Assembly (NCBI RefSeq): GCF_018350175.1
Contig: NW_025408510.1
Location: 124,001-188,000 of the forward strand
DNA from: Felis catus
Taxonomy: Eukaryota
Direction: 5' to 3'
Length of the DNA: 64,000 bases
A program made the translations under genes and the position numbers. Each line of letters begins with the position of its first letter. The stretch's first letter is position 1. The notes under the pieces were generated by a model. That model saw only the letters and a program-made list of their open reading frames with translations, was not told where the DNA came from and did no database searches. This document shows positions 25,890-57,352 of the stretch, piece by piece.

Positions 25890-26041
25890 GGTCTCTGTCT
25901 GGTTTGGGAATCAAAGTAAAGCTGGCTTCGTAGAATGAGTCTGGAAGTTTTCCTTCCATTTCTATTCTGTGGAACAGCTTGAGAAGCATAGATATTAACT
26001 GCTTTTAGATGTCTGATGGAATTCCCCAGGGAAGCATGTGG
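23365..26041 (-). mobile_element. 5'-truncated carnivore L1 (ORF2 3' part + 3' UTR), disrupted
   Basis: ORF2 peptides [46 protein letters not shown]; felid-type 3' UTR. Confidence 0.95.
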
Positions 26042-29740: not shown

Positions 29741-29755
29741 TGCCCCTCCCCCACT

Positions 29756-29806
<51 letters not shown>

Positions 29807-33682: not shown

Positions 33683-36345
33683 CCACATGCTTCCCTGGGG
33701 AATTCCATCAGACATCTAAAAGCAGTTAATATCTATGCTTCTCAAGCTGTTCCACAGAATAGAAATGGAAGGAAAACTTCCAGACTCATTCTACGAAGCC
33801 AGCTTTACTTTGATTCCCAAACCAGACAGAGACCCAGCAAAAAAAAAAAAAAAAAAATGACTATAGGACAATATGCCTGATGAATGAGAATACAAAAATT
33901 CTCAACAAGATACTGGCAAATCAAACGCACAGCATATGAAAAGAATTTTTCACCATGATCAAGTAGGATTCCTATCTGGGCTATAGGGCTGGTTCAATAT
34001 TTGCAAATCGACCAATAGGATACATCACATTAAGAAAATCACAGGTAAGAACCACATGATCCTGTCAATACAGGCAGAGAAAGCATTTGAAAAAACACAG
34101 CATCCTTTCTTAATAAAAACCCTCAAGGAAGTCGGAATAGAAGGAACATATGAAAACATCATAAAAGCCACATATGATACAAGCCCACAGCTAATATAAT
34201 TCTCCTGGGGATAAACTGAAAACTTTGCCCCTGAGATCAGGAACATGACAGGCATGTCCACTGTCACCACTGTTGTTGAACATAGTTTTGCAATTCCTAG
34301 AACCAGCAATCGGACAACAAAGTGAAATCAATGGCATCACAATGGCAAAGATGAAGTCAAACGTTCACTCTTCACAGACCACACGATACTCTACCTGGAA
34401 AACCTGACAGAATCCACCAAAAGTCTCCTGGAACTGCTACATCAATCAGGAAACTCACAGGGTACAAAAGCAATGTACAGAAACCCATTGCATTTTAATA
34501 TACCAATAACAACGAAACAGAAAGACAACTAAAGAAACTGATCACGTTCCTAGTTGCACCAGGACCATAAAATACCTATCAGTAACCTTAAAAATACGAA
34601 TGAACCGATCCAAAGATATAAAAGTTCTGTATGCTGAAAACTATACAAGGGTTATGAAGGATTGAAGAAGACACAAAGAAATGGGAAAACATTCCATGTT
34701 CATGGATTCGAAGAATGAATATTGTTAAAATGTCAATACCACCCAAAGCAATCTACACCTTCAATGCAATCCCCATCAAAATCGTGCCACCATTCTTTCC
34801 AAAGCTAGAACAAATCATGTAACATGTGTATGGAACCACAAAAGACCCCGAATATACAAAGTAATATTCAAGAAGAAAACCAAAGCAGGAGGCATCACAG
34901 TCCCAGAATGTAGCCTCTGCTACAACCTGTAATCATCAAGACAGTATGGAATGGGCACACAAACAGACACATAGGCCAATGGAACAGAATAGAGAACCCA
35001 GATTCAGACCCACAAATGTATGGCCCGGCCCACTAATCTTCCACCAAGCACGAAAGAGTATCCAATGGAAAAAAACCAGACTCTTTAACCACTGGTGCTG
35101 GGAGAACTGGACAGCAACATGCAGAAGAATGAAACTAGATCACTTTCTTACAGCATACACAAAAATAAACTCAAAATGGATAAAGGACCTGAATGTGAGA
35201 CACGAAACCTTTAAAACCCGAGAGGAGAAAGCAGGAGAAAACCTCTCCGACCTCAGCTGTGGCAATTTCTTACATGACACGTCTCCAACGGCAAGGGAAT
35301 TAAAAGCATAAATGAGCTGTAGGGACCTCATCAAGATAAAAACCTTCTGCACTGCAAAGGAAACAAGCAACAAAACAAAAAGACAACAGATGAAATGGGA
35401 AAAGATATTTGCAAATGACGTATCAGACACAGGGCTAGTATCCAAACACCTATAAAGAACTCACCAAACGCCACACCTGAAAACAAATAATCGGGTGATG
35501 AAATGGGCATAAGACATGGATAGGTACTTTCGAAAGAAGACATCCAGATGACCAAGAGACATATGACAAGATACTCAGCGTCACTCCTCATCAGAGAAAT
35601 ACAAATCAAAACCACACTGAGATTCCACTTCACATCGGTCGGAGTGGCGGAAATGAACAAATCAGGACACTATAGATGCTGAAGAGGATGGGGAGAAACA
35701 GGAACCCTCTTGGATTGTTGGTGGGAAGAAAAACTGGTGTAGCCACTCTGGAAACAGTGTGGAGGTTCCTCACCACATTAAAAATAGATCTACCCTATGA
35801 TGCAGCAATAGCACTGCTAGAATTCAGGGGATTCAGGAGTGCCGATGCACAGGGGACTCGTACCCCAATGTTTATAGCAGCGTTTTCAACAATGGCCACA
35901 TGATGGAAAGAGCCTAAATGCCCGTCAATGGACAAATGGATAAAGAAGATGAGGTTTCTATATACGATGGAATACTACTTGGCAATGAGAAAAGATGAAA
36001 TCTGGCCATTTGTGGCAACGTGGAAGGAACTGCAGGGTGTTCTGCCAAGTGAAATAAGTCAGGCAGAGAAAGACAGATACCATATGTTTTCATTCATATG
36101 TGCATCCTGAGAAACTTCACAGGAGACCAGAGGGGAGGGGAAAGGGGGAAACGGGTTGCAGAGAGGGAAGGAGGCATACCCTAAGGGACTCTTAACTACT
36201 GAGAACAAACTGAGGGTTGATGGGGGGTGGGGGAGAGGGGAAAGTGGGTGATGGCCATTGAGGAGGGCACCTGTGGGGATGAGCACTGGGTGTTGAATGG
36301 AAACCAATTTGACAATAAATTATATTGAATACAAGAAAAAAGAAA
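33683..36345 (+). mobile_element. 5'-truncated carnivore L1, mirror copy
   Basis: Same ORF2 fragments; 3' UTR gagggttgatggggggtgggggagaggggaaagtgggtgatgg...ccaatttgacaataaa. Confidence 0.95.
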
Positions 36346-36829
36346 AGATGCTCAAAGTCACTCCTCATCAGGGGACTACAAAGCAAAACCACACTGAGAT
36401 GCCACCTCACACGGATCAGAGTGTGCCTGTGGGTGGGCAGTCAGCACTGCTGCTTTGCTGGGACACAGTGTGTCCTCCAAAAGCGACAAGGGGTGGGGGG
36501 TCTCGCGCTTTGGGAAACATGGACAATCAGGAGCAGCGAGACTGCAACGTAGCCCAGGGTGTCCCGAAGCTGGCCCAAAGGTGGCCCATCAACGTCATCG
36601 GGGCTCTTACAGGCTCCCGAGCCCCTGTCGTGGCCGAGGAGGGGGGTGGGGGAGGGGCGTGGAAAGAGCACAGACTTGGGTTATGATTGCAGGGAGGTCC
36701 GCCCATGCATATTTTTGGGGGTGGTTTTGGCTTCTTGGCTACTTTTCTAGAGCAGTTTTAGCAAATGTGACAGGAAGCTCCAGAGATTTCACACACATAC
36801 CTGCCCTTACTGAGGCACAGCCTCTCCCC

Positions 36830-37680
36830 TGAGCAGGTATCCGAACCCCCCGCCAGGGCGAGGCCTTTGTCACAGCCCCAAACCTGTGCTGATGTGTGTC
36901 CATCGCCCAAGGTCCGCAGCTGAAATCGGGTTCGCCTCTGACGTTGTACCCCAGTGCGTCCGGGCGGGTGCGTGTTGAGGAGTCTCTGCCGGTGCAGCGT
37001 CCCACCGGGTAGTCTTTCCGCCCTGACGCAGTCGTTTCCGTTGGTGCTGGCGCCACAGCGCATTTACCAGGCGCAGAGGTGGGCGGGAGGCCGGCTGGTT
37101 CTTGAAGGCGGTAGGAGCCCGCATGCGCTGTGGAGGGCGAGGGAGGTGCTCTTCTGAGCATCCGGTTTCTCCCTTGCTAGAAGTCTTCCACCTGCGAGGA
37201 GGTCGCCCCGGGCCCCTGTTTCTCCGAAGACCGTCCCGATCGAGGCAGGTGAGTTCTGGTGGACCCAGCGCCGCTCGGACTCCTGCAGAGATCCCAGTGC
37301 CAGCCGTGGGACGCCGTGAGGCTCGGGGCGCCCTGGTTCTGCTCACTTGGGGGACAGCATTTGGCCACCCTCGGGCGGAAGGCCGGCCTGTCCGTGTGGA
37401 CGCCCGCAGGCTCCCGTGAGTCGTGGTGGCCGCTCTGTGGCGGCGGGGTGTGTGTGGGGGCGCCTCCCGTGGCAGTGCTGGCTTAACCGCTGGGGGGGCG
37501 GTAAGGGCCCTTCTCACTGCAGGTAGTGGCTTCTGGGAGGTTCTCCGGGTGCCCGCCTCAGCCGCGGCTGTCGTGTGAGGAGTGTGCCGGCCGCCCTCGC
37601 AGAGGCTGTCGGAGACCTTCCCGCCTTGTCTGTCCCCTGACCCCGCACAGGCTGCACACGTTCTGTCCCCCGAGGCGGCT
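36830..37680 (+). promoter_or_regulatory. CpG-rich putative promoter / first exon of right copy
   Basis: gggcggg at 36962 and 37081, cgcatgcgc at 37120, donor CAG|GTGAGT at 37248/37249. Confidence 0.65.
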
Positions 37681-39109
37681 GCCACGAACAAAGGCCACCT
37701 TAGGCCCTTGCGTCCTGTGGGCCAGGCCCTAGAGAGTCTGGTGAGCTGGGGAAACCCTATAGAAATTGGGAAGTTGACGAGAAGAAGGGGAGAGTGCCCT
37801 TTGTTCCCTGGGTCAGTGTTTCTGAGACTCGGTGGTGTCGGGACACTTGGACATCAGGGGATTATTGAGGGCCCCAGAGAGGCTTCGTGTGTGGGGGTTG
37901 TGTCTCTCGATCTCTTCTGTGGTGAGGTTAAACCGAGAATTGAAGCGGGCGCCTGGGTGGCTCTCTGTGTTAAGGGTCCGACTCTGGCTCAGGTGGTGAT
38001 CTCACAGTTGATAGTTTAGAGCCCCATGTGGGGCTCTGTGCTGCCAGCTGCCAGCCTGGACTTGTCTCAGATTCTCTGTGTCCCTCTCTCTCTGCCCCTG
38101 CCCTCACGTGCCCTGTGTCTCTCTCTCTCAAAAACAAACATTAAGGAAACCAAACCAAATCCGAGCATCTCAGATGTGATGAATTCACTTAAAGACAAGA
38201 AATTAGTACATATTTTTCATACTTTAGGGAAAAAATATGTACATTTTCAGAACAACACTGTGTAGAAGGGTGGCATTGGCATTGGCATTGGCTTAGTGCA
38301 AGATCTTTATTCTTCCAGCTGCTTCTGCATTCAGTGTCTTGTGGCCAATTATGTTTAGGAAGGCGATGTGGACTCCCCCAGATGAACAGCTGGAGGCGAG
38401 GAGGGTGTGGCGGTAGCTCCTGGGGTGTCTGGATGCTCTTTCCTGATTCCGCACTCAGATGGGTGGGGCTTCCTTGCTTCTCTTGGGGGTTAGCAGCCCG
38501 CACAGAGCTGCATTTTTGTGTGGCACGCGGTGGACGTTTGGAACATCCTAGGCCACTGCTTTCAGCTGATCTTCCATATCTTTCACTCAGTGAACACATT
38601 CTTGGAACCACCACCTGGATGAAGAAATGGAACCTTACGGTGCTTCCTACCTCCTACTGACTCCCACCGAACGTCCCCCAAAGGTAACCACAGTCTTGAC
38701 TTTCACCAGCGATGGCTTTGGCTTGTTCTTCGCTTCATGTTGAGCCAACCCGTGAGCGCTGTGTGTGTGCAATGCACCTGCTTTCCTTGTGTGGCTGTGC
38801 TGGTCCTCCCCTGGTGTCGAAAGCCCAGTGTGTGAGGACAGCATGGTTTATTCTTTCTCCTGTGGGTGCTCCGGTTTGTGCAGAGGCTGCCTGCAGATCC
38901 ACATGCATCGTATTGGGTTGCCTTGGAGGAGCAGGGCGTGAGTGGTGGCACGTGTCTGCTCCCCTCGAGCAACAGCGTGAGGGAGCTCAGGGCTGGCTGA
39001 AGCCTGGTATTGCCTCTTCTCCTGTGTGTTAGCTGGTTGCTGGGGCTCAGGTGCTGGGAGGTATGGTGTATTCGTGGGACCCGCCCCTGTGTGTGTCTTG
39101 GCCACTTAC

Positions 39110-40683
39110 ATGTTTCTTTTGTGAAATAATTGCCTTTTGGAAGCCACTTTGTGATTAGGTTGTGTGTTTTGGTTTTTGTTGATTTGAATGAGTTCTTTCT
39201 ATGTGTGTGGAATACATCTGTGAATGGCAGAGGTTTTCACATTCTTGGGTATGCCTGCCTTTCATTCTCTGTGTTGCCTTTTGGTAAGTTTCTTTTTTTT
39301 CTTTCCAATAGTGTAACCATTTGTATGTTTCTTGCCTTGGATTGGCTCGGGCCTCCAGTACTGTGTTGAATGGAAGTGGTGAGAGTAGGTGTCCTTGTCT
39401 CCTTCCAGATACTAGAGAGAAGGTTTTCATCATTTTTTGTNNNNNNNNNNNNNNNNNNNNNNNNNNNNNNNNNNNNNNNNNNNNNNNNNNNNNNNNNNNN
39501 NNNNNNNNNNNNNNNNNNNNNNNNNNNNNNNNNNNNNNNNNNNNNNNNNNNNNNNNNNNNNNNNNNNNNNAAGCAGACTCCGCACTGTCAGCACAGAGTC
39601 TGATGCGAGGCTTGAACTCATGAACCGTGAGATCATGGCCTGAGCTGAAATCAAGTGTCAGACGCTTCACCGACTAGAAGCCACTCAGGTGCCCCAAAGA
39701 GTTCAGTATTTTACCACTACATATGACACTTTCCGTGGCAATCCTGGTAGATAGTTGGATCAAAACATGAAAATTCTCCTCTATTTTTAGTTTGCTCTGA
39801 TTTTTTAACAATCATCAAAGAAATAATAATACTAAATTTTCTGAAATGTGTTTTGTGCATCTTTGGGGACAAGTGATTTGTTTCAATGTTGTGGTTTAAC
39901 TTAAAACAACTTTTGCCCTTCTAGAATAATCCAAACCTGATGTCTGTGCATTCTCTTTTCACTGGATTGCATTTGTAAATAGTGTGCTTTGGATCCTTGC
40001 ATGTGTATTCAAGAGAGAGGTGGATGTTCCCTTGCACCCTCTTGTGCTGGCCATGCCGGGGTTTGGGTTACAGGTCGTGCTGGCCTCCTAAAACAACGTA
40101 GGAAGAAGCACTCCTTGTGCTTTCCCAGAAGAGGTTGTGTGTGTGTTCTTTTCTTTTGGGAAGAAGTGCTAGGCCAACAGCTGGTGTAGGGTTTTCCTTG
40201 TGAGAAGGGTTTTCATTGCAGATTCCTTTCTTAAGTGGAAATAGGCTTTTTCTGATTTCCCATATCTTCTTGTGTCTATTTAGATAAGGCATTTTGTTTT
40301 CTAGGAATTTGCTCTGACCTCCCAAACTTTCCAAGGAGTAAGTGTCAACTGGTTTCTAATATCCCTCCTATCTGCAGCATCTGGTGTGATACTTGCTTTA
40401 GAACTTCTTGATATTGGAACTTTGTGCTTTGTTTCTTTTTCATAGAACCAACTTGGGCTTTTTTGATTTCTGTCATTTACTATTTGTTTCCTGCAGCACT
40501 GATTTCTGCCCTTTTGTTTTCCATCTACTTGGTGATTGTTTGCTGTCCCATCTTGTAGTTGTTGAACTAAATCCTTCATTTGATTTTTAGCCTTTGTTCC
40601 TTTCCAGTATGTGTATTGTATTTATTTGCTTATTAGTGTGTTGATTCATTTTAGCATGAGAGCATGAGCAGGGCAGAGGGGCA

Positions 40684-40723
<40 letters not shown>

Positions 40724-43535
40724 GAGAGAATCTCAAGCAGGCTCCTCACTCAGTGTGGATCGATCTTGTGGCCGTGGGATCATACCCTGAGCCAAAATCA
40801 AGAGTTCGTCACCAAGCCACTGAGCTATCCCTATGATATATGTATTCTAAAGCTATGAGTCTCCCTTTAAGCACACCTTTAATGATGTTACGAGTTGTGA
40901 TAAGCTAAATGTTTATTATCTTTTATGTGAAACTATTTTCTAACTTTCATTGTGGTATCTTTTTCTTAATTCATCACAATGTTTAGGAGCATAACACATC
41001 TCGATGTTTCAGGGGATTTTCTCGTTCTCTTTGTGCTGATTTCTAGCTTACTTCTATGAAGGTATCTGTCTCAGTGTTTTTGGGTGATTGTAACAAAATT
41101 CCATAGACTGGCTGCCTAATAAGCACAGAAGCTTCTTTCCTATAGTTGAGGAGACTGGGAAGTTCTCAAGATCAAGGCATCTGCAGATTCAGGGTCAGGT
41201 GAGAGTCAGCTTCCTGGTTCATCGACAGCCTACTTCTCCCTGTCCTCAAGTGGTGGCAGGGGTGATGGTGCTCTCTCAGCCGACCAGGACTGGTCATCAC
41301 CGGAAGTCTCCCTGTCTTCATCCCATCACTGTGGGCGTGATGAATTGTTGGGGGAATTGAACTGTGAATCTAATGCAATCCCTAAATAGGCCCTGCAGTA
41401 TTTCAGTCCTTTCAGATGAGTTCACTTTCCTAATGGCCTGGCATATATTCGTTTTCATGAACTGTTCCTTGGCCACGTGCAAATAATGTGTGTTGGGGGG
41501 AATGCAGTATTCTCTGTTTATACGTTAGATGAAGTTTGTTAATGACAGAATTCAGATTTTAGTAACCACTTGAAAGCAAGTAAGGAATAGGCAAGAATGA
41601 GTTTAATAATATTACTAACAGGTATATCCAAAATATCATTTCAGTGTATAGCCAGCGTGAGAAAAACTAATGAATGATTTTGCATTCTCTTTTATCACAT
41701 TGTCGCTAAAATGTGGTGTGCATTATATACTTTCCACACGTCGCACTTTGAGGAGCCGCGTTTCAAGTACTTGCAATAGAGCACGTGACCGCATATTGGA
41801 CAGCCCCGTCCCACTGCCTTGAGTTTTCTGTTGTCGTCAGTTCTGTCAGATACTGAGAGATGCATCGTCAAGTCTCCCATAATGCTTATGGATGTGGCTC
41901 TTTTTCCTTTTCTATGTTTGTCAATTTTTCTGTATTTTGAGATTGCGTTATTAGGTATATGCAAGGTTAGAAGTCTTGTGTTCTTGGTAAATGGAACTTC
42001 CATCGTGAAATGTTCCTCTTGGTCTCTAGTAGAGCTTTTCGCTATAGAGGTTACTTTCTTGGAGGGTCACATCAGTTTTCTGTTCGGTTGGGTTTGCCTG
42101 GGGATCTTTTCCTTCCACCTGTCTGTGATCTTATGTTTTAAGGTGTACCTTTGTGACCAGCGTATGCTTAGTTTCCTTCTAATGAATTTGAGAGTCAACC
42201 TTTTGCTTGCAGCATGTGTGCACATGTGATGACTGATAGGTTAGTTTACACGTACCGTATTATTAGTTTCTTCTTTGCCCCAGCTGTTCTGTGTTCTTTT
42301 GGTCTCTAGCCTTCCTTTAGAAGTAGGAGGGAGTTTTTAATTGTACACTGATCTGTTAGGTAATTGGAATATATCTATTTCTAGAGGCAGGTGCATTTTC
42401 AACTGACCCCTGCCCGATTCAGGACTTGTACTGTTTCCCTGACACTGCTCTCTCCTTTTATCTTTTCTTTGTTTTAAGATTTATTTGTTTTTTGAGAGAG
42501 ACATAATACAATCGGGTGAGGGGCAGAGCAGAAAGGGAGACACAGAATCTGAAGCAGGCTCCAGGCTCTGAGTCATCAGCACAGGGTCTGACGCGGGTCT
42601 CCAACTCACAAACCGTGAGATCGTGACCTGAGCCAAAGTCGGACACTCAACTGACTGAGCTACCCAGGCGCCCCTGCTCTTTTCTTTGACACTTGAACCA
42701 CACTGAACTCCTCTTCACCTTTTGTTGGCTAATATTTGTAAGTCTTAGATGGATTTTGGCGTTGTTGTCATTGTTTCGTGCACTTAATGCTTGTTAAGGT
42801 TTGTTCTCATAGTTACCCTCTCTGTTGTGACGTTGTTCTGCAAGCCGTGTTTTTTCATATTTCTGTCAGAGACTACATTTCTTTTGTGCAACGAGCTGCT
42901 TTAATATTGATTTTAGTTTGTGTCTGTAGTTGATGTGTAGTCATGGTTTTTGTGTGTGTGTGTGTGTGTGTGTGTTGTTTTTGTTTGTTGTTTCTGTTTT
43001 TATTTTTGTTTTTGCTTCTGTTTTGCCTGAAAAACATCTTTACTTTGCCTTCACTGGGAAGAATGTTTCTGTTAGGTAAAGACTTCCAGGTTGGTGGCTA
43101 TTTTAGTTCACCTTTCATACATGCCAATCCATCATCTGGCTTCATTTGCTTTTCTTGAAGAGTCAGCTGGCAGTGTTGTTGTTGTTGTCGCATGGAAGGC
43201 GGTATCTTTGTCCTCTCATGGCTGTTAACATCTTTTTGCCTCGGGTGTTCTTTGTGGAGTCACTGTCATGGTTCTTTTATCAGTTTTGGAATAGTTTTGA
43301 TTCTTATCTTTGTAGGGATGTGTTAATATCCATTCTGTGTTTCCTCTACTTTGAGGGTTCCCATTGGACCTTTGTACCATATCTTCTGTGTCTTTTGGGC
43401 TTCTGTATTTTCTGGACGGTTTCTCTGTGTATGGTCTAGATATATTTTTACCTACCTATCTTTCAGTTCACTGAGTCTATTCACCTGTGTCTAGTCTGAT
43501 GTGAAGCCCATAGACTGAGTTCTTAATGCTTTCAA
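39110..43535 (-). mobile_element. Ancient fragmented L1M LINE, mirror copy
   Basis: Reverse complement of 16180-20600. Confidence 0.7.
39441..39570. other. Assembly gap (130 N)
   Basis: N run. Confidence 0.99.
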
Positions 43536-44384
43536 CAAGATTTTTTACACTTTTATTTATGTTGGAGAGCTAGACAGGTTGTGAGTAAGGGAAAAACAGG
43601 GAGAGAGGGAGACACAGATGCCGAAGCAGGCTCTCGGCTCTGCGCTGTCAGCACAGAGCCCAACACAGGGGCTCAAACTCCCGAATCACGAGATCATGAC
43701 CTGAGCTGAAGTCAGATGCTTAAGCAAATGAGCCACTCAGGCACCTGGAGACCCTAATTTTAGCTCCGATAATTTGCAGTTTGAGAATCTGTTTTGAGTC
43801 TCTGAAAATTTTCCATTTGTCAGGAATGGTTTTTGGACAGTTGACTTTTGCATCCAGTAATTCCAGTCTATGTGTCTCTTCTTGGTCTGTTTCTCTTCTT
43901 TCTTCTTTGGGTCGCTATGATGCAAAACCTGTTTTTTTTATGTTTATTTATTTATCTTGAGGGAGAAAGAAAGTGAGAGCAGGGGTGGGGGTAGAGCATG
44001 GGGGAGAGAGAGACCCTCTTGAGCAGACGCTCTTTTCTGTCACTAGAGAGCCCAACACAGGGCTCAAACTCACAAACGTGAGCCGAAACCAAGTGTTGGT
44101 CACTTAAACGAGTAGACTGAGCTATCCAGGTACCTCTCTGTTTTTGTTTGCTTGTTTGTTTCTTTCCTTTTCTTATTAAAAGAATTTTTTTTTGTTAATA
44201 TTATCTACTTTTGAGAGAGAGAGGGGTAGAGACAAAACTTGAGCAGGGGAGGGGGAGACAAAGTGGGCGACACAGAATCCAAAGCAGACTCCAGGCTCTT
44301 CACTGTCAGCACAGAGCCCAACACCAGACTAAACCATAAACCATGAGATCATGACCTGAACGGAATTGGGATGCTTACCCGACT

Positions 44385-44547
44385 NNNNNNNNNNNNNNNN
44401 NNNNNNNNNNNNNNNNNNNNNNNNNNNNNNNNNNNNNNNNNNNNNNNNNNNNNNNNNNNNNNNNNNNNNNNNNNNNNNNNNNNNNNNNNNNNNNNNNNNN
44501 NNNNNNNNNNNNNNNNNNNNNNNNNNNNNNNNNNNNNNNNNNNNNNN
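44385..44547. other. Assembly gap (163 N)
   Basis: N run. Confidence 0.99.
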
Positions 44548-47529
44548 GTTGGACATTATGTAGAAGCATAGAGGCTCTTTGTGTGGTTGTATTTCTTCAG
44601 CATTTCATCCCACACACCTCGAGTGTGGAGGTTATTGGGCTCAGTCAGGCGTGAGTGACCTGAGACTGGGGCTCAGTCTTTGTAAGGTGCAGTGTGAGCT
44701 GGGCTCACGCTGTCCCCCACCCCCGTGTAGTCCTCCAGTGTCTCCATCTTGAGGCCGGGAGTATTTCCAAGGACCCCTTCTTGGGGCTATGTCCCAAAGC
44801 CCAGTTATTTTCTCCACAGCACAATGAGATGATGGAAGGGTCAGCTTCTCAGGTAGTGCTTGTCGAGTGCCGGGCTCATTTTCTGTGCCTCCCTGTGTTG
44901 TCCAGAGCTCGGTTAGCTGCGACTTTCTGCTTGCCTTTCTGTTAGGTTTCCTTTGCAGCTTGTTGGTATATTGCCTCCAGTCCCTGAGGAAATTCAGAAT
45001 TCTCACATGTCTTGAGGGAGAGAGAGGACTCTGAACATTAGAGTTGGCTCAGGGGCTTCCCTTTTGTTGGTGTCTCAGTCCTTCCAGTTGTGACTGCCCC
45101 AGTGTCTCCTTGATGCCTTCAAACACTGCTTAAAATTGAACTCATCTTTCCTAGTTCATGATGGGTTGACTAACAGACTACTCACACGTATAAGAGCAAG
45201 CCGGAAAAGAGTGAGAAGTCATAGTGAACATTTTGGTCATCAGCATTTGTTACAGGAGAAAACGAAACCCAGTAGTCCTTGCCTAGTACCCATCGTTCTT
45301 CTAAAATGACCATCCAGTTTGCCCACGCTCAGCCAGCGTCCATGGGGTGGTGATGGTGTCAGCGTCCCAGCCCCACCCCCCTACACCACCGCTCTCTTCC
45401 CCTGTCAGGTGCCTGCCCAGGGCGGGCTTTGTGGTGCCGGGCTGGCTGTGGCAGGGCAGGCAGAGGAAGTGGATGGCTTAACTGACACTTTGAGTGTTTG
45501 ATCAGTGTTCATTGTTTTCTAATTTTCGTAATGTTTATTTACTTTTTAGAGAGACAGAGAGTGTGGCCAGGAGAGGGGCAGATGGAGGGACCCAGAATCT
45601 GAAGCAGGCTGGGGACGGGATGCACTTCAAGCGTACAGTGCAAACCCCACAACAAGGGTTTCTGTATTGGTGCACCCGAACCATCTGCAGAGACACAAAC
45701 ACCCACCTTTGTGGCTCCCCTTTGTGACTCTGCACAATTGTGGTCGCCAGGCTCTGGCTGCTGTGTTCCTCGGAGATGGTGGTGGAGGCACATCTGAAAG
45801 AGTGTATCTGAAAGAGTGAAGGGGTTAAGAGGAAGTGTTGCTTCCTTGCGCACGGTGGTTCAGGAAAGGCCTTTTCCGGAGAGGTCGCTCGGGAGCTGAG
45901 GCTGACCGAGCACTCTCCCAGCAGTCCGACTCCAGGGCCAAAGGCCGGGGTCAAGGAAGAGCTTGGCTTTGTTGTAAGCGATGGAAGGGGAAGCGGAGCC
46001 AGGTGAGGCGCCAGGCAGCTGGTGTTGGGACAGAACCTACCCCGTAAGGAGTTGGGTTTTCAGATAAGGACCTGGGGTCGTTGTGTCCTCAGTGGGAAGG
46101 ACTGGCATGATGTTGTTGAATTTTTTGAAAGCTGGTGCTGGTTCTGTGTGGATAGTGGGTTGGGGGAGGAGACAAGAATGGATGCAGTGTGGACGTCATT
46201 GGGTGGAGTGGCTCCTTCTAATGCGGGGGTTGAGCTCTAAGATTCGTGCTTTAGGCAACAGGTACAAGCCCCTCACATCACCCATCACATAAAGCACAGG
46301 ACAGTGTGCGTCTTTATATCCTTTACAGAACTACGTAATGTTTAAAAGCAGCGTGTGTAATTGTACGTGTGTGGGTACAAGGCGTACACTAAAGTATTCA
46401 CCTGTTCTGGAGTGCGTGGCAGGCACTGTACTAGGTGCTGAACACTATGTGCTGCAGTTACCTCGCCCAGAGACGTATGTGGTTTTACGGAGAGCAATAG
46501 AAGGGCATGGGAGTGTGTGGTTCGGTGGAATAGGGGGTACGTGTGCACCGTGCGGCTGCAGGATGGCCGTTTTGTCCCATGGGTCGGCGTGGGTCAGCCT
46601 CGGGGAGGCGGTTTTCCTTGGGAGGTTCGGCTGCCCTGTGTTCTCCTTCATGCACCCCGCTCTGTCTCCCGGACGCCTTTCCAAGCACCTTGTAGTGAAG
46701 CTCCATCTGGGCGGACTGTGGGCTCTTTGAGTTCCACACGGGCCACCACCCTCCTCCCCACACCTGTGCCTCCTCCTGGGAACAGAGCAGCTTGCTACCT
46801 GGTCCAGTGGTCAGAAGCCAGGGAGATGGCTTTGCCTCTTTCCCGCTCTTCCCTCTCCTTGCTGGTCCGTGGGTCCTGTGGTGTGGAGCTTGCCTCTCTC
46901 AGAGGCCATCTGCGAGGTCCCTGGAGATCTATACCCTGTCTTCACTCGGGTGGACTCGGGGAGGGGCCAAGTACTGCAGTCTTCCCTGTTCCTGCCGCAA
47001 TTGCCTGCCAGCATCTTGGCTGGGGGGGGGGGGGCGGTGCCTCCTGCTGTGCAGAGATGCTGGCTTTCTGCCCCATCTGTGTACAATACGCCATGCTCTC
47101 TGAGAAGACGGCCTTTCTTCCTGAACCTGTGTCCTGCCTGCTGGCCCTTAGTGCTTGGTATTGCTGAGCAACTTGGTAACTACGTGGTTTGGGGAAACAT
47201 GTTTGCCCTGTGTACAAGGACCCTCCAAACTGCTCCTGTTCTGCTCCTGGGTGGCTCAGTCGGTTAAGTGACCGACTTCACCTCGGGTCATGATCTTTGT
47301 GTTGGAGAGGTAACCCCCGATTCGGGCTCTGTGCTGACAGCCCAGAGCCTGGAGTCTAGTTTGAATTCCTTGTCTCCCTCTCTCGCTGCTCCTCCCCTGC
47401 TGCTTTCTGTCTCTGCCTCTAAGAAATAAAGAATGACATTAAAAAACTAAAACGTTAAATCTATTTCTATTTGACTCTTCTGTTGTTGACAATGGTCGTG
47501 CTTGCTTCCTTCTTCCCCAAGGATGAGTA

Positions 47530-50500
47530 GAGCTGACCGTAGAACAACTTGGTGTTCGGGGTTCCACCCTGCCCACAATTGAAAATCCATGTATAACTTT
47601 TGCATCCCCAGAAAACTTAACTGTTCAAACTCTCCTGTTGTCCAGAAACCTTAGTAGAAACACAAACAGTGCATTAGCACCTGTATCTTGTATGTGTTAT
47701 ATACTATATTGTTCGAGTGAAGTAAGCTAGAGAAACAGTTTAACGTCATAGGGAAATAGGTTCACAGCTCTGCGCTGTATGGATCCCTAAGTTTATTCTC
47801 CGTTTGTTTCTAGAAGGAATTGTCTATCAGAACCCACATCAGTGCTGGCTCAGGTGACACACTACGCTGTTGTTACGTGTATCATTAGCACTATGCATCA
47901 GAAATGGGAGGAATTGGAAAGATTCCTGTGTATTTACGGATGTCACAATTCATGCGTTACCAATGAAGGGTGAATGCTTCGTGATGGCCTGGTGTAATCA
48001 GTACGATTGCTTCGTCATGGCCTAGGAGAGACACGGGTGAATGCATGGTTACAAAGCTTTTCTAGCCTGCAGTTTTACAGCCATATTCCTAATACAGTCT
48101 GGACACATTGTTACCTTACAAAAACGGCCTGTGATAGTAGGCTGAGAGGCATTTTCTCCAGGCAGGGACAGAGAGAGGCATGCTACAAGGTAATGTCACT
48201 TTTTGAAACCCATGTTATGGAATGACACGTTATTCGTTTTATGTGAGATCTTATCCCCTTATGCCCATGTGAGGATAGGCTGTCCAAGTGCACACAATTC
48301 GCGCACACGATGTTACTCCTGATGAACGCTTAGGTGGTGGTGACACACATGCGTCCCGGGTGGCCTGGCTGCATGCTCCCTCGATTTTCACGCACACACG
48401 TGTGCATGGCAGGTGAAGTGATTCACTGAGGACCTTGGTGAGGATTTGCTGTCTGGAAAGTGGGGGTGGGTCCTCACAAATGTCTGATGTGCAGACCTGC
48501 ATGGGGGGGGACCCGCTAGATGGGGAAGTCTTGGGCCTTGGGGCCTGGCGGTATGGGGGTGGAGGCGGGCACTGTCTTTGCAGCTTTCCAGAAGGGCCTT
48601 TCTGTTCCTGGCCAATGTTTCCGTAGACGGCTGGCTGGCTTTAGTCCCAGTGCTTTTGTCATGGAAGGGTCCATGTGGGAAAGGAGCCGAGACTGTGCCG
48701 GATCACTCCTGGTGGCAGCGTGCTTTCCAGCGATGCCACTTCCATGCCGCCTTCCTCGCCCTCCATCTGCTTCGCCAGATCTCCTCTCTGTACTGTCTTC
48801 TTCTGTGACCTCCTCTGGGCTTTTCTCTGTGCTCGTGACCTTCTGTTAGGATACGCATTTTGAATCCCTGCATCCCCCAACTCTTTTTCTTTTTCTTTTT
48901 TTTCTTTTGCCATATGCAGAGTCTCATTCACGAGTTTCCTGATTGGCTGTGTCATAGGTCCTGGAAATCACGCACGTCATATGGACAGTCATCTCTAGCA
49001 GGGATTTCTTGATTGTGTTGGGCTTGATGGTTTCCCCAGAGTTTTTTGTAACCTCCCTTGGCATCTTCCTGACTTTCATAATGTTCCCTCTGTGGCGGTT
49101 CTCTTTGGTAGCATTGACTGTCCTTCTTGTAACGTGCCTGTGTCATGAGCCTCACAGGTCCTCGTGGCCCCTGGTCCGCAGGCTGACTTAGACCCGCTGC
49201 GCTCCGGAGCGAGTGAGCCGCCAAGACACGTTTGGTGCTGACCCGTGGGGTTCTGGGTTGGCCAGGACATTGTCCAATGTCAGAAGAACTTTGGAGGACA
49301 GTCCCTTGCTTTCAGCGTACTTCCTGAGTTGAGGGACAGAGCCGGGATGGAACTGGTCCAGGGCAAGGGCTCTGGTTGTGCAGCAGACCACTGGCCACTG
49401 GGACTTGTTGCCTTCAGGACCTTGGGGTGAGCTTCCTACACAGGGCCAGCTGCCCTGCTCACACCCCGCCTGTATCCGCTCAGTCGGTAGCTACTGCACC
49501 CCTTCCTACCCAACATCTTGGCGCTCACTTGTCTTTCTCATGAATAAATGTCGTTTGTGGCATTTTCCCCCCGACAGGGCACCTCCTTCTGCATGAAAAA
49601 CCTGTGCAGGCAGCCATGGTCTCCTCAACTGATTTTCTTGGGTTTTCACTTTTTGTGTTGGAGTGGTTGACATGCGGTGGATGGTAGTTCCTTCTTCTCT
49701 GCAATCTTCTCTGGGGCGTCTGGGAAACTGTGTCCTTCTTCTTCGTGGTGGAAGCTGCTTCTCCTATCGTCTGGACCATTTCAAAGCCAAACCCCTTTCT
49801 AAAACCACCAAGCTGTCCTGTGCCTGCATTGAAATGTGCCAGTTTTCGATCCTTCCCTTCCTTCTGCCTTACGTCGTGATGTCAGGTCCTCACTTGTCTT
49901 GCAGTTTGAGTTGAGTCTGCAGGTGTGCCCGTCTCACAGCAGTCCTACATCCACAGAGATGCCACATCTTCCACACGAGACACAAAGATGTCTCACAAAT
50001 AGCACCAGGTTGTTGCATGTGCTGGGGTAGCCGCAGCGAGAGCTTCGAGAATTTCCCTTTCCTTGTGCCTCCATGGTCCTCACGCTGGCCGGCTGGCAGC
50101 TGCAGCTGTGGACCTCAGTACATGTCAGGCCATTCAGCCTTTTCTTGTCATACCATGAGTCTTCTCTGCATCGCGGGAGCACGTCCAGCATCCCTGGGGA
50201 CACTTCAGACAGGTTCCGGGGTGTAGTTAAGTTTCATGGTATTGCCCTTATCACGGTGAAAATGACGCAGGAACCCTGAGAAATCACTTCTCCTGTGGTG
50301 CTTGATTTACTGGAGAAAGGAAGTGCTTACCAAGAGCTGAGTGGCAGATTCGTGGATTCGTGCAACACTTGAGGGGACCTCAATAGTAACAGGAGGTGGT
50401 GCACCCTTCCCCCAGAGGACAGCGTCTGCTACAGCTCGTGTTATGCGGTAAGGACTTAATCCTGCGTCTCCACATTTGTTTGCCTTTCTCTTCACTGCAA

Positions 50501-50796
50501 ATGGCACCATGTAGGTACGGTCAGTTTCTGTGTGCAAAATGATACGTTTTATCTTGTGAGAGTAGGTTTGTGTATGTTTTCGGAGAGGAAATGCTCTAAT
50601 AGCCTAGTATCTGCGTACATTTCATGCACTCCTGGCCTCCCTTTTACTTACTAGTTTTGATACTTCGTAGCTGCTCAGCTCATCTGCCAGTCTTTCCAAA
50701 CGTCACACATCTCCAGAAAAGTTTCCAATGTATTTATTGGAACAAAAATCCCCACATAGAAATGGGCCTGCACAGTCCTACCTCAAGGATCAGATA
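47530..50796 (-). mobile_element. Tigger2-like DNA transposon, mirror copy
   Basis: Reverse complement of 8916-12180. Confidence 0.8.
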
Positions 50797-51741
50797 GGCT
50801 TCTGTGGGTTCACCTTGTCAAGTCAGATTGCAAGGAACGTGGTCAGTTCTGTGATAACATTCCCGTTGATTTGGAAAGGGTTAATTTTTGAAAGAAATTG
50901 AAGTATGTCACCAGTTTGTACTTGGATTTTCGAGAATTGCTGAAATCAACAACTCTCTTTATTTGGAATGTCAGTTGTTAAGTGAACGTTTATCCCCTCG
51001 TTTGTCCTACAGAGACAAAAGCTCGGGGGCGCCTGGGTGTCTCAGGGCGTTAAGAGTCTGACTCTTGGGTTCAGCTCAGGTCATGATGTCATGGTTCAGG
51101 GATTGAGCCCTGCACCAGGCTCTGCGCTCGACTGACTGGAGAGAGTGCGTCCACCTCTTTGGAGCCCACCTGTACGCCATGTCCTGGGCGGGCGCTCAGT
51201 ATTGTGGGAGAGAAACCCCACGCGGGGTGGTGGGCCCTGGCATCACTCTCCTCAGAAACCCTTCCTCCATAATATTTCCTGCTTGACTAAGGAAAGAAGT
51301 CGTAAACTCGCCCTTTCGTCAAGAGTCCTACCATCATTTTTGAACAGTCCATTGGGTATGGTTGAGTCTGATTGAGCCAGGGGTTCAGGCTAAAACAGCA
51401 GCTTTTGAGTACCGTCAGCCTTTCCCCACTGCCGCTCCACAAGCCTGCTTGCCAGATGAGGCCAGAGGCTGCGGATGGGCAGGAGGCTTCTCGGCCTGTT
51501 GCTCCCGAGTCAGCAGAGTTCCTGAGTCCTAGACCTGCCAGGCACCTGAAAATGTCTGTCCCCTTGAGTGTCAGTCCCTCCGAGAATCCCCGGAACTCCT
51601 GTGGGTGGTGAGGAGGGGACTGGTGTGTGTGATGCTACTTGAGGGTGGTGGGTGCTGGGACTCTGGAGGGCCACGGAGGCCTGGTGTGCTCTGGTAAAGA
51701 CCCCCTGTGTCTCTCCACTTTTGTCCCCTCTCCGACCCCAG

Positions 51742-51843
51742 GAGTGTGCAGCTCTCGCTGCAGAGCTCCACACCTGCAGGGAGCAGCTCAGGCAGAGGGA
51801 GGAGGAGATCGCCAACCTGAAGGCGGAGAGAAACAACACCAGG
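51742..51843 (+). pseudogene. PPFIA1: PPFIA1-like exon 3 equivalent, right copy
   Basis: Mirror of 7869-7970; AGG (R) where the left copy has ATG (M). Confidence 0.9.
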
Positions 51844-52114
51844 GTCAGTAGGCGCACTGCCAGTGTCTTTAAACACAGGACACCATTCACTCCCCTTGTC
51901 CACATGTCCCCATGGAGTTGGCTGGGACCTATTTTTCTCAAACCTTCTTTGATCCGTGAGGAGGAGTAAGGCTATTTTAACACATTCGAGGGGGTGGCTC
52001 CCTACCTGGGAACTGAATTGAAGGGATTCAGACTTGGTTTTGCATTTGGTGAACTTGAGGCCCGGAATTGAAGGTGTTCTTGAAACACGGTGTTCCTTTT
52101 GCCTCTCCCGCCAG

Positions 52115-52279
52115 CTGCTGCTGGAACATTTGGAGTTCCTCGTCTCCAGGCACGAGAGAGCTCTTCAAAAAACCATCATCGGGCGACAGGTGAAGACTCC
52201 GGCCGGCGTGTCCAGTGAGGCGGAGGTGCTCAAGGTCCTCAACTCCATATTGGAGAAGGACAAAACCGAGGCTGAAACG
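52115..52279 (+). pseudogene. PPFIA1: PPFIA1-like exon 4 equivalent, right copy
   Basis: Mirror of 7433-7597. Confidence 0.9.
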
Positions 52280-52666
52280 GTGTGCCTAGCCACGGCGGTT
52301 CTCAGTTTGTGCACATGCTGTGTGTTCTAGGCACACTTTGTGTGTTTGTGTGACTGGAGTTTCCTTTTCATCTTCTTCAATTCTTGTAAGAAGACAGGTC
52401 TGTATGGTTAAAAAGCAGTAGTTGGTGGAAATGTTGTGGGTATCGATTGGCTAGTACAAATTGCATAATGTAATTTATTTCGGGGAAGATTTGTCTCCAA
52501 TGTAAAATTGAAAGCGGTTAACAAGCAAGTTTGTGAACCGGAGCATCCGTGAAAAACCTTACCAGCATTCTGTCATGTTATTTGCGGCGAAGGGGATCTT
52601 AGGGTCACTGTAGAGTAAGGACTAATGAAACACCTCTGTGTACAAACTCAATCCCTTGGTTTCCAG

Positions 52667-52738
52667 GTGAGAGAGCAGCTACGTGTGGCACTGGAGGGGT
52701 GTAGTTTCGTAGAAGAAGAATTAGGGGCCACACGCAGA
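52667..52738 (+). pseudogene. PPFIA1: PPFIA1-like exon 5 equivalent, right copy
   Basis: Mirror of 6974-7045. Confidence 0.8.
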
Positions 52739-52868
52739 GTTCAAGCTCCAGACATCATCCCAGGATTTGATTGGAGGGGGTTTCCTTTTTATCCATTGTT
52801 TTTAAAACAACATATGAAGACTAGCAGTGGGGGCCCTCACATGTTGCTTCCCTTTCTGAGTTTCAAAG

Positions 52869-53006
52869 GTGCAGAGCCAGATGAAAGAGCTCCTGGCTAC
52901 CCTGTGCACTCTCATGGCCAAGCTGGAAGAGGACCTAGACATCTCAAGGAAAGACCTCATCCTTTCTGAAGCAATGAACACCATATTACAAAGAGATGTC
53001 CGTGAA
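52869..53006 (+). pseudogene. PPFIA1: PPFIA1-like truncated exon 7, right copy
   Basis: Mirror of 6706-6843. Confidence 0.85.
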
Positions 53007-54511
53007 GTGAGTGTCATTTGAGATGGCCACGCCGTCGTCGAGCTAAACGTGGGGTGTTTGGTTCGGCCTTGCCCAGTGTGCCTTCGTCTCCCACGGGTTT
53101 TGAACGTTTGGAGTTTGGTAGAAGTAGCAGCAGAACGGGACGTGATTCTGGGGCCCGGGCGGGCTGCCTCCCCGTCTGCATGGTGGAATCTGTCCTCCCT
53201 GGGCTCTCCCCTGCCGAGGCCTGGCGGGCAGGCGGCGGAGTGGCCTCGGGTGTGGAGTGTGGGCCACCTGAGCTTGGCCCATGCCGTGCTCTCGGTCCGT
53301 TTTGGGAACACACTCGGCACGTAGGAACCAGCGTGGTGCTGCCAGGTCGTTTCCGGGGGCACGACCTTGTGAGGGCGGCTCTGCCAGGGGCCGTCACGGC
53401 CGCCTCTGCTGCCCTGCCCTCCTCCCAGGGTTCCGTGCTTCTGGTCGTGGCGGTCAGAGTGAGCGAGGGGCAGCCCGCCGGTCCTGGTGTAAGGTCATGG
53501 AGGAGTGCGGCCGCTTCTGCACGTGTGGTCGTCCATGGGAATCTGATCATTGTCACAGAAACTAGTAAGGGTAGGATGGTTTCTCTGTGCCTCCTCCTGT
53601 CACTGTGAGCTGCCCTTTGCGGACAGTCCCCGCACACCCCACCCCCAGCCCGGCAATGCCACCTCGGGAAGACCCTGTCAGACCCTCGAGGGTGTAAGTG
53701 CACGAGCAGTCTGTTTAGTACCTCAGTGTGGGTGAGATCGTGTCAGAATTTAAAACAAAAGTATTTGCAGAAATTCTATAACCTGTTGTTTGGCAAAGGT
53801 GGGGAGAGACCCCTCAGCAGAGTTCAATATGCAGAGAATTTAGAAAATCATTTCTTAGGACTCATCACTTTCACTCTTGAGACTGCTGACATACATTGCT
53901 TAGTAAACACGGAGGACTGGAAGAGGAATCTTTCCGGTGTTGGACAAGAAACGCAGGGCAGGACCTTCTGGTTCCATTTGCAGTGTCAGACACCATGGGA
54001 TACAATGTTGTTACAGGGTGAGGGTACAGAAGATGACTTCCAGTTATATGAAAGGTGGAGTTTGGCTTCCATTTGTTAACACTGCTGCTTCAACTTTGTG
54101 GTAATTGGATGAGATTTCATCCACCTTTTCCCCGGGAAAAAGGATGGTTGTCTCATGGTGTGTGCCTCCAGAGGCAAGTCGCCGTTCCGTGGAAAGCTCA
54201 ATGATGTCCAGAGGCAACCGAGGTTGTGACTTCCGGGAGACTTTATTATCCGTTTGTCTTTGAACACATGGGAAAGAATAAGCCTGGGTAACTGGTCAGA
54301 ATCCCGAGCAGCCTCCGCACTGTCGGCACAGAGCCTGACGCGGGGCGCCAACTCACAGAGCGGCACCGGCTGAGCCACCCAGGTGCCCCGAGGATGCTAC
54401 TTTTCTGTTTGTTTGGAAAATGAGGATTTCGCCCGGTTTTTGTGTCTGGAGTGTCTTAATGTGTCGTACGCTAACTCTTTCCCTGTTTTCCCTCTGAAAT
54501 ACCTGCTGTAG

Positions 54512-54658
54512 GCCATGGCCCAGAAGGAAGACATGCAAGACAGGATCACTACCCTTGAGAAGCGCTGCCTCAGGGCACAGCACAAAGCCACCTCTCTGCA
54601 CGACCTCAAGGATAAACTTGAAAACGAGATCGCAAAGAAGGACTCTCTGCATCGACAG
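54512..54658 (+). pseudogene. PPFIA1: PPFIA1-like exon 8 equivalent, right copy
   Basis: Mirror of 5079-5225. Confidence 0.9.
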
Positions 54659-55461
54659 GTCGTTGGTTTCGTTGAACTTCATTCCACTTTTATTAATTAC
54701 AAGTCAAGTTAAGGACCAAGTGTCAATGTCAAGGTTTTAGGATCTTAGAATCTTGTGTTGACCAGCGGGGTTACTTCATCGTCCAGGGTTTAATTCTTTC
54801 GAGTTTTATGGAAGCATGTTATGGGGCTCCCCTCCTTGATTCCTTCTTTGTCTTGTCTTACATGCACGTTACTCTGTTGCCTGTTAGCACTGTTTCCAAA
54901 GGAGCAGGGAGTGGCCGGGAATGTGTAGGCAGCTGGCCATTTTGGTTAGTACCTGAGATCGGGGGGAATGGCAGGTGCAGAAGCACAGTCTGGCGTGAGG
55001 CTGTGAGACCCTGTGTTTTGGGAAGCAGCACGTCTCTTCCTTGGTTGTCTCAGGTCATCCGGCATTGAACAGGAAAACCACATCCAGCTTCTTGGAAACA
55101 GAGTGAGCTTTTTCTGGGGTGTTTGTCAAATGTGTCAGTCGACCCAAAATGATAATCAAAGTGAAATACTAGGAAGCCATTAAAATGACATGGAGGAATG
55201 CTGTTTGAGAGCACGTAACATGTTCCAAGTCATGAATGTATAGGGCAGATCGTGAAATACTATGTGTATAGCATGTGATTTATTTTGGAGGGTTTAAAGC
55301 ATGATACGCGGTCTGTATATACACACAGAGCCATATGCACACAGAAGATGGAAGGAGTCTGTGGCAACACATGTTAACCTTGCAAAAACCTCACCTTTTA
55401 CATGATTTTTAAAATGACTTTATATAATTTTAACGCTTATTTAGTTTTGAGAAAGGGAGCC

Positions 55462-55504
<43 letters not shown>

Positions 55505-56236
55505 GAGCAGTGGAGGGCAAGAGAGGGAGACACAGAATCCAAAGCAGGCTCCAGGCTCTGAGCTGTCAGCAGAGAGCACGAGGCGGGGTTGACCCCGTGA
55601 GCTATGAGATCATGACCTGAGCCGAAGGTGGACGCTTAACCGACTGAGCCACCTCGGCTTCCCTAAAAGTCCTTTAACAAAAAATCTCGTGTCTAAGTTT
55701 TCCACGTTGAAGTTTTCCACGTTTTTGGTCAAAAGGGAGAGTGTTTTTGTTGAATAATGGTACACTTCCAAAAAGAACTCAACTGGCATCAGGCATGCTC
55801 TCAGAAGCTCTGTGCTGGCTGATGTGCCCACCTCAGAATGTCCTATGTAGCGAGCCCTCGGACCCCAGTATAAATATGTTTACGAAGGGTTAGGACCGAA
55901 CCCTTCTCTCCTTAACTGGTCAGGAAGAGCGAGCAAGCTCCTCCAGAAGATGGGTTTTCTTTACTGTGTGGGAACTTTGTCTTTGGAAAGACTTCTTTGA
56001 AGATACTGAAGAAGGGCAAAGAGTTTGGCAAGACATGTTTTGCGTAGTGAAAGGAGGACCAAGGCAGTGGGTGACTCCTTGCAGAAAGGAAAGGTTCACT
56101 CTGAAGCACCTACCAAACTGTTGGCTTCCGTCAGAACTAACAGTAGATCTCTGCATTTAGATTTTGTTTCACTTTATTAAAAATGGAAACGGAGAGAAGA
56201 CTTGCTACACTTTGATGCTTTGCCTTCATGTCCTAG

Positions 56237-56371
56237 ACTGCGGATCAAAACCGCCAGTTGCAAGAGCGCCTGGAGGTGGCGGAGCGGAAGCTGCAGCAGA
56301 CCCCGAGGAAGGCCAAGTCGCTGCCCGAGGTGGAAGCCGAGCCGGCCCAGAGGGTGGCCACCCTCTGCAAG
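56237..56371 (+). pseudogene. PPFIA1: PPFIA1-like exon 9 equivalent, right copy
   Basis: Mirror of 3364-3498. Confidence 0.9.
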
Positions 56372-57232
56372 GTGGGGCCCCCGTTTCCTTCTGGGTTCCC
56401 TGGTGGGAATGTCATTTTCAAGGCGGTCCGTTCTCGTATCTCATTTCTCACCGGTAACGTCGGCGTGCCAAAGTCCGCGAACCAGCTGAGATCTGTTTTC
56501 GGGGCTACTTTGTCTGAGATTGGAATGCTTTTCAAACGGCAGGCATCATCCCCAGTTTTGTTCCCTCCGGTTTTGTCCGACGTGTGCTGTTTGCTGTTAG
56601 CTGCATCTAAGACTCACTGCTTTTCAGAGTTAAGTCAGCGACTCAAAGCTCAAGATAGTAGCCTTGGGCAAGAGAAGGACAGGGGTGCCTGGCTGGCTCA
56701 GTCAGTGGAGCTTGGGACTCTTGATCTCAGGGTCATGAGTCTGAGCTCCCCGTTGGGTGTAGAGCTTACCGAAGGGAAAAAAAAACAAAAGAGCATAGAA
56801 TTTGTCCGAGAAATGAGAAAATCCTATCCTCTTTTAAACACAATCGTTTTTATTTAAAAAATTCTTAAATGTTCATTTATTTGACACAGACAGAGAGGGC
56901 GAGCCTGGGCACATACATGAGCAGGGGAGGGGCAGAAAGAAGGAGATAGAATGCCAAGTAGGCTCCATGCTATCGGCACAGAGCCTGACACAGGGCTCGA
57001 ACGCCCAAACCTTGAGTTCATGACCTGAGCTGAAGCCAAGAGTCAGAACCCGACTGACTGAGCCACCCTGACACCCCTGTAAGAAATAAATCTTTAAGGA
57101 ATTCACTCGGAGGTTCCACAAATAGAGTCGAGGAACATGCCAGACACAGTCCCTGCCCTCCCAGTTCTCACAGCCCTCACCACCCACGGAGGAAGGCAGC
57201 AGTTGAAGAGGTAGTTTCCAGACATGTTGTAG

Positions 57233-57352
57233 TCTAAACTAAACAAAGAGACTAACAAACGTTTGTCAGGCACTAATGACCAGCTCCTTTTTGAATCTGA
57301 TGACCGGTTTCAGAGTCGTCTTAAAGAGAGGATGGCTGCTGTGGAAGATAAG
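57233..57352 (+). pseudogene. PPFIA1: PPFIA1-like exon 11 equivalent, 5'-truncated (SKLNKETNKRLSGTNDQLLFESDDRFQSRLKERMAAVEDK)
   Basis: Hand translation matches liprin [33 protein letters not shown]; gtagga donor; begins at the deletion junction. Confidence 0.88.

Follow-up and report, generated by a model that had tools for sequence, protein, structure and literature searches.

Our analysis indicates that a 340-nt segment of cat DNA, positions 52667-53006 of a 64,000-nt stretch (the window, which here means the whole of the DNA analysed), probably represents a rearrangement junction within a partial PPFIA1 duplicate that is multi-copy and present throughout felids, in which exon 5 has ceased to be defined as an exon, splicing joins exon-4 donors or upstream exons in frame to a new acceptor at 52869, and retention of the unspliced sequence is common. 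The features on which this reading is built are the following, with positions in the window and residues numbered by the full-length cat parent PPFIA1 protein (P0113).

2499..57234, no strand: palindrome, with arms at about 2499-29744 and about 30491-57234 and two head-to-head gene copies
6706..7045, minus strand: mirror of the junction in the left arm, with its acceptor at 6843; 340 of 340 nt identical
51742..51843, plus strand: exon 3 equivalent, covering the first half of helix H2 (parent residues 89-122), with 26 of 34 residues as in P0113
52115..52279, plus strand: exon 4 equivalent, parent residues 123-177; 34 of 55 identical; in-frame donors after 52189, 52225 and 52279
52280..52666, plus strand: intron 4, retained in the RNA sampled, with an in-frame stop at 52328-52330
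52667..52738, plus strand: exon 5 remnant, parent residues 178-201; 18 of 24 identical; strong acceptor intact, donor lost
52739..52862, plus strand: non-coding island of 124 nt between the breakpoints, with a branch-like CTCAC (52836-52840) and a pyrimidine tract
52859..52860, plus strand: rival AG, lying 8 nt before the new acceptor, which only phase-1 donors (52319, 52682) would join in frame
52863..52868, plus strand: Ser and Lys codons left over from exon 7, of which the Lys codon provides the AG of the new acceptor; in a degenerate alignment 52863 corresponds to parent residue 263
52869..53006, plus strand: exon 7 remnant, parent residues 265-310, start of CC2; 32 of 46 identical; strong donor; ATG at 52881
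54512..54658, plus strand: exon 8 equivalent, residues 311-359; 38 of 49 identical
56237..56371, plus strand: exon 9 equivalent, residues 360-404; 35 of 45 identical
1723..1806, minus strand: exon 10 equivalent, in the left-arm gene only and absent from the plus strand; 26 of 28 identical

The palindrome occupies about 55 kb of the window, and each of its arms carries one intron-containing partial duplicate of PPFIA1 (liprin-alpha1). As the original prediction had it, the feature is present in both arms, 52667-53006 (+) being identical to 6706-7045 (-) at all 340 nt, and across 51650-53100 there is a single difference between the arms in 1451 sites; because the main blocks of the arms are 99.2-99.8% alike throughout, the second occurrence adds nothing to the case for the junction. 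Automatic models named 'liprin-alpha-like', of cat and further felids, are the proteins closest to the duplicate; among them, P0193 and P0197 fit the left-arm exons and P0227 the right-arm exons, with 100% identity in exons 7-9. We also considered whether the palindrome is an assembly artefact, which is unlikely because these left- and right-arm models, two annotated cat genes, are both recorded on one 226-kb contig. Multi-copy, near-identical inverted repeats, the mark of ampliconic gene families, are present at this locus. Taken in order, the exons match successive stretches of parent residues; they have GT..AG ends, and the introns keep their parental positions, as in a segmental (DNA-level) duplicate. 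Parent exons 3-5, 7-10 and 12-13 are found in order, and the gene extends beyond the window ends; within the window there is no exon 2 (H1) or exon 6, and no match for parent residues 1-81 or 203-262.

Several further observations concern the structure of the family. Some cat models (P0191, P0001, P0190) hold exons 4-10 twice in tandem, which means that head-to-tail duplication of the unit has occurred as well, in other copies. Annotated models use new first exons that lack a counterpart in the parent; these lie at 37123-37248, 38594-38698 and 45841-46002 (+), with mirrors. In the right-arm gene, a second deletion, situated where the palindrome arm ends (57234-57352 (+)), has taken exon 10 and the start of exon 11, the exon-11 remnant having only 67% identity to the left-type model, and the right-arm model P0227 splices exon 9 to exon 12. 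Between that remnant and exon 12, a weak match to parent residues 476-528 (58648-58809 (+), E 4e-4) is perhaps a decayed duplicate of exon 12, and the exon-13 donor at 63352-63360 (+) is GC, not GT. The window also contains three runs of N (461 bases; 15165-15332, 39441-39570 and 44385-44547), two of them at palindrome mirror positions.

For reads we examined 4 of 24 listed runs, tissues not given, 3 of which had coverage: X24, with stranded oligo-dT (poly(A)) reads, of which about 2% were read and 161 placed; X10, made of contigs, which drop rare forms, and taken as RNA by guess; and X5, with flat coverage like that of DNA. In one X10 contig, exon 3 runs into letters that translate like the 38627-38698 exon. 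Sequences 86-90% alike to the window over 51658-52941 also occur (X10 records 1, 4 and 7; X5 records 13 and 14), one with a changed exon-3 acceptor and one with parent-like exon-7 residues yet the same junction; they possibly represent an older progenitor copy.

PPFIA1 had been named as the parent gene, and the matches of the exon-5 and exon-7 pieces, at 18/24 and 32/46 residues, bear this out. It had also been claimed that the lost part is the linker between the coiled coils, in agreement with which parent residues 203-262 are missing from the duplicates in both arms; the best tblastn match to them in the window, on the opposite strand, has E 0.041 and 27% identity and is not convincing. The 3' breakpoint lies at about 52863, where, in a degenerate alignment, exon-7 homology resumes at parent Ser263-Lys264, so that the acceptor AG is exonic rather than intronic and sits, as a cryptic acceptor would, inside an ancestral exon; the parent exon 5/6 and 6/7 boundaries are here assumed to be those of human PPFIA1. 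The segment 52739-52868, put forward as a 130-nt intron, does measure 130 nt in this copy, but its last 6 nt (52863-52868) are exon-7 sequence. Most other copies have 129 nt here: 22 of 25 X24 reads lack the base at 52743, as do the X5 and X10 contigs. Likewise, the stop expected on retention is found here, a TGA ending at 52969 in the exon-5 frame, but copies lacking 52743 stop at codon 46. A read-through protein across the island was considered and rejected, a stop being present in both the 130-nt and the 129-nt forms.

Comparison of the 124-nt island with the back-translated linker gave no match above shuffles, 24 of 200 and 12 of 100 shuffles scoring as high, and on the same counts we rejected the start of the island as the decayed, lost 5' part of exon 7. 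Apart from its mirror, the island has no copy elsewhere in the window, and Rfam gave no match inside it, with two matches (E 0.48 and 0.6) far under the gathering scores. Its source may be intron 5, intron 6 or filler DNA.

The deletion is old. Annotated duplicates in five genera (Felis, Prionailurus, Leopardus, Acinonyx and Panthera) have the VQSQ start of the exon-7 remnant, six felid duplicates form one clade with support of 100 and a long stem, and a contig only 86% alike to the window (X10 record 7) crosses the same island-exon 7 junction; the deletion thus predates the felid radiation and the split between Panthera and the small cats. The felid radiation goes back roughly 11-15 million years. 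When metagenome contigs were scanned for the coding sequence of the exon-7 remnant, 592 loci matched the pattern and 0 were confirmed.

According to the original prediction, exon 5 is kept and its donor has shifted to AGA/GTTCAA at 52738. With a position matrix (not MaxEnt), this site scored -5.2, with 2 of 9 matches to the U1 consensus, while 8 other donors scored 2.3 to 8.1; 87% of the window's 7342 GTs score -5.2 or higher. The site is just as poor (-4.9) in copies lacking 52743, and the best GT between 52670 and 52866 reaches 2.0. Judged as a U2 intron, 52739-52868 has GT..AG ends, a branch-like motif and a pyrimidine tract, and lacks the donor consensus; both proposed splice positions are in phase 0, as was written. 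The end of exon 5 is absent from 78 of 78 annotated felid records, 0 of which use the shifted donor, and its first 5 codons occur in only 3. The corresponding RNA joint, 52738>52869, is not listed in any of the 3 covered runs, with a depth of 26-29 in X24. On the best reading, then, exon 5 is dead, its donor gone and the exon skipped.

The other half of the prediction, a new in-frame acceptor at 52869 made of a pyrimidine tract plus AG in phase 0, is supported by 37 of the 78 felid duplicate records, which join it directly, with the reservation that isoforms of one gene are not independent. By score the acceptor is weak (1.9, reached by 21% of window AGs; the exon-5 acceptor, still strong, scores 9.6), and the branch-like CTCAC lies 30 nt upstream. 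VQSQ is present in 51 of the 78 records and absent from 19, while in a further 8 the protein begins with the Met that follows four codons on. The 37 joining records contain 38 direct junctions to VQSQ, 15 from the donor at 52225, 10 from 52279, 6 from 52189 and 7 from upstream exons without parent counterpart; the three exon-4 donors, all in frame, score 2.7, 5.3 and 7.2, respectively. As we read their proteins, another two records of Ensembl type are consistent with an out-of-frame join from 52319, and 14 records, all from Prionailurus, read ..SK-VQSQ, which fits the AG 8 nt upstream. Joins from exons without parent counterpart and out-of-frame joins are unlikely to be made by homology, which suggests that transcript evidence underlies these records. 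In the runs examined, where joints under 3 reads are not listed, neither reads nor contigs show any donor joined to 52869. We conclude that the acceptor at 52869 is probably real, its use being read from annotations. The GT at 52190-52191, the strongest exon-4 donor in the window copies, is GC in the X24, X5 and X10 sequences, and the donor after 52189 is used by six cat isoform records; a single base here may set the isoform that a copy makes.

In the RNA sampled, retention dominates, and the RNA comes from sister copies. X24 depth is 16-34 over 52336-52972, almost all on the sense strand, with a sense-strand depth of 14-28 over intron 4 (52280-52666) and zero depth over most of intron 3; coverage drops at 53007, where 12 reads leave into exon-8-like letters. 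X10 contigs cover 52114 to about 52940 continuously. The only joint listed in the runs examined is 51842>52114 (exon 3 to exon 4; GT..AG, cut +1), seen in X10 contigs and 1 X24 read, with no joint into 52667 and none from exon 4 to 52869. Thus, in two runs, the 892 nt from exon 4 to the exon-7 remnant are unspliced in much of the RNA, and the retained exon-4 frame stops at 52328. These reads are assigned to sister copies because none in X24 carries the window allele at 52378 (0 of 26), 52613 (0 of 19) or 52658 (0 of 24). The outcome that the original prediction had named as contrary to it, retention, is therefore seen, in sister copies rather than in the window copy. Between 52866 and 52931 the summed X10 depth climbs from 474 to 845; this leaves room for an unseen spliced entry but may be a filter effect.

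Matches to solved structures place H2 at parent residues 88-150, H3 at 149-211 (PDB 7D2E) and a piece of CC2 at 282-386, while the Pfam CC2 family (PF25526) spans 250-497. All 4 duplicate models scanned contain PF25526 (147-266 bits against a cut-off of 34), and none of the 4 contains SAM domains, of which full-length liprin-alpha has three at its C terminus; a complete CC1 (H1, H2, H3) is absent from the duplicate. The exon-4 donors cut after residues 147, 159 and 177, removing all, most or half of H3, respectively. In the predicted structure of P0193 a single helix (residues 19-192) runs across the joint, with pLDDT 79 there and pTM 0.26; monomer models of coiled coils tend to give long helices anyway. 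According to the review PMC8044993, H2/H3 pairing restrains liprin-alpha oligomerisation and CC2 binds ELKS and RIM; by analogy, a product without H3 and SAM domains could assemble with itself or disturb the parent protein. Should the in-frame isoforms be translated, they would be a natural deletion of the very helix that, in the published model, restrains oligomerisation, and such a variant would make that model testable.

Over 321 aligned codons, 240 of them identical (75%), the duplicate has no stops or frameshifts of the kind that mark a pseudogene. Neutral simulation left no stop in 32-48 of 2000 runs and, at an assumed 0.06 indels per substitution, neither stop nor frameshift in 0 of 2000; the open frame goes beyond neutral expectation, which argues for selection on the frame. 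Residue change itself looks close to neutral. The duplicate is about 75% identical where the PPFIA1 parents of other mammals are nearly invariant.

Taken together, these observations can be ordered into a mechanism. The DNA for residues 203-262 was lost together with the exon-5 donor, leaving the 124-nt island against mid exon 7, and the branch-like motif and pyrimidine tract of the island would turn the Lys264 AG into the weak in-frame acceptor at 52869. Without a donor, exon 5 would no longer be defined as an exon and hence would be skipped, in line with a reporter described in PMC6224609, in which mutating an exon's own donor gave whole-exon skipping. In a share of transcripts, splicing from 52189, 52225, 52279 or the first exons to 52869 would then yield coding isoforms that keep H2 and CC2, lose half or all of H3 and the linker, and lack H1 and the SAM domains, while retained RNA, with its stop at 52328, would presumably be degraded or read from Met 52881. 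The product might act as a shortened coiled-coil scaffold, with weak constraint on residues and selection for the open frame. The frame-preserving fusion of the original prediction survives here in that two helical blocks would be fused, but on this reading exon 5 is not kept and the 130-nt intron is not spliced. Against this reading, the three exon-4 junctions place CC2 in three different heptad phases relative to H2, and therefore no single in-register fusion is conserved. The identity of exon 5 (75%, versus 62-78% for the coding exons on this arm) is as expected under weak constraint.

We weighed two readings in which the spliced isoforms matter less. The copies could form a transcribed, decaying pseudogene family, with retention as its real output, spliced forms as noise at a weak acceptor and little or no protein; near-neutral residue divergence, at least six donor positions feeding the junction (some out of frame), retention as the only form seen in the RNA sampled, 9 ATGs in 52280-52880 ahead of Met 52881 and the removal of exon 10 by the right arm's second deletion all fit such a family. 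We nevertheless consider it unlikely, as a frame open over 321 codons at 25% residue divergence is not expected under neutrality and long open models are found in five genera. The 9 upstream ATGs tell, in turn, against a reading that we regard as extremely improbable, namely that the main protein is CC2 only, begun at Met 52881 on retained or internally started transcripts, with upstream splicing incidental. The 8 of 78 records that start MKELL, among them a Logan contig protein and the right-arm model, agree with it, as do paralog reads in X24 that begin around 52200-52240, but the depth slope is equally given by oligo-dT bias, and X10 has spliced exons upstream.

The other two readings differ in the fate of exon 5. 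That it is kept, with 52739-52868 spliced out as a 130-nt intron and exon 5 joined to exon 7 in frame, is compatible with the GT..AG ends, the phases (0/0), the length and the branch-like motif, and the RNA reads represent sister copies rather than the window allele; however, the donor is equalled or beaten by most GTs of the window with or without 52743, the records never use it, and neither X24 at its depth nor the X10 contigs that cross both sites show the joint, leaving this reading very improbable. Somewhat less so, though still improbable, is a recursive route, in which 52667-53006 is spliced to exon 4 as one exon and a second cut to 52869 follows, giving the same mRNA as skipping. Exon 5 begins GTGAGA, so that the re-formed donor would score 8.2-10.5, in the top 1% of window GTs, its acceptor is still strong, and the mechanism is described in PMC6224609. 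According to that same paper, however, the first step requires the exon's own donor; PPFIA1 is not named in its text or 5 supplements, and no joint into 52667 is listed for the poly(A) reads, such intermediates being short-lived. The skipping of an undefined exon 5, with entry at 52869, thus remains our preferred reading.

How does this duplicate compare with known systems? A literature search returned no paper describing duplicates of PPFIA1 in felids; the felid assembly paper of 2023 in Nature Genetics, with its supplements, may cover the amplicon, and PPFIA1 and liprin go unmentioned in the supplements of PMC4676127 and PMC6288940, as they do in the main text of PMC8006817. The felid 'liprin-alpha-1-like' models of RefSeq and Ensembl (for example XP_044907481-486 and XP_044907489 from Felis catus, XP_053744662 from Panthera pardus) belong to the same family and already use the acceptor at VQSQ. 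They differ in carrying automatic names only, some of them wrongly alpha-2, -3 or -4; exon 5 is complete in none of them, and the deletion goes undescribed. Like the duplicate, the PPFIA1 parent has exons 3-5, 7-10 and 12-13 in this order and the CC2 of PF25526, whereas H1, exon 6 and the SAM domains (4 models) are absent from the duplicate and H3 is cut or absent.

Lineage-specific gene families borne on ampliconic palindromes are known, for example, from the sex-chromosome amplicons of mammals. The felid duplicate resembles them in being multi-copy, in its 99% alike inverted arms and in its fast protein change; unlike sex-chromosome amplicons, related felid models sit on contigs of 86-95 Mb, which we infer to be autosomes. 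Activation of cryptic 3' splice sites and skipping of exons that have lost their donor are also known kinds of event. In the same manner, an exonic AG of the duplicate gains a pyrimidine tract by rearrangement and the donor-less exon is skipped or retained, but, unlike disease alleles or reporters, the change is fixed across a whole mammal family. A further comparison is with SYD-2 R184C, a gain-of-function change that, according to PMC8044993, removes the H2/H3 contact closing the CC1 dimer, while the duplicate removes H3 itself; R184C alters one residue of an otherwise full-length protein, in which H1 and the SAM domains are present, and the duplicate might, by analogy, have a like effect.

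Outside felids, sheep (P0071, P0070, P0321) and horse (P0119, P0257, P0283) have independent partial duplicates of PPFIA1, known as gene models only. One sheep model joins parent residues 95-177 to 237-382, omitting exons 5-6, and in the horse models a repeat of exons 3-4 is followed directly by residue 310, so that exons 5-7 are left out. A single ancient duplicate shared with sheep was rejected, with 4 shared derived residues of 37 and 35 and separate clades, in a tree built on a short alignment, with an unresolved backbone and some sheep2 and horse columns misprojected. These parallel duplicates would allow a test of convergence. A bolder proposal, in our view doubtful, is that the felid genes form an H3-less, SAM-less liprin-alpha family whose H2-CC2 fusion, freed of H2/H3 closure, would assemble with itself constitutively and bind or poison the normal partners of liprin-alpha, most likely in male germ cells and gated by retention, the sheep and horse duplicates hinting at loss of H3 as a repeated route to a new scaffold.

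As a splice event, the junction is of an ordinary kind, in which a deletion kills one site and exposes another. The felid gene family that carries it is apparently undescribed, known only as mislabelled automatic annotations, and the junction provides a clean character shared by its many copies.
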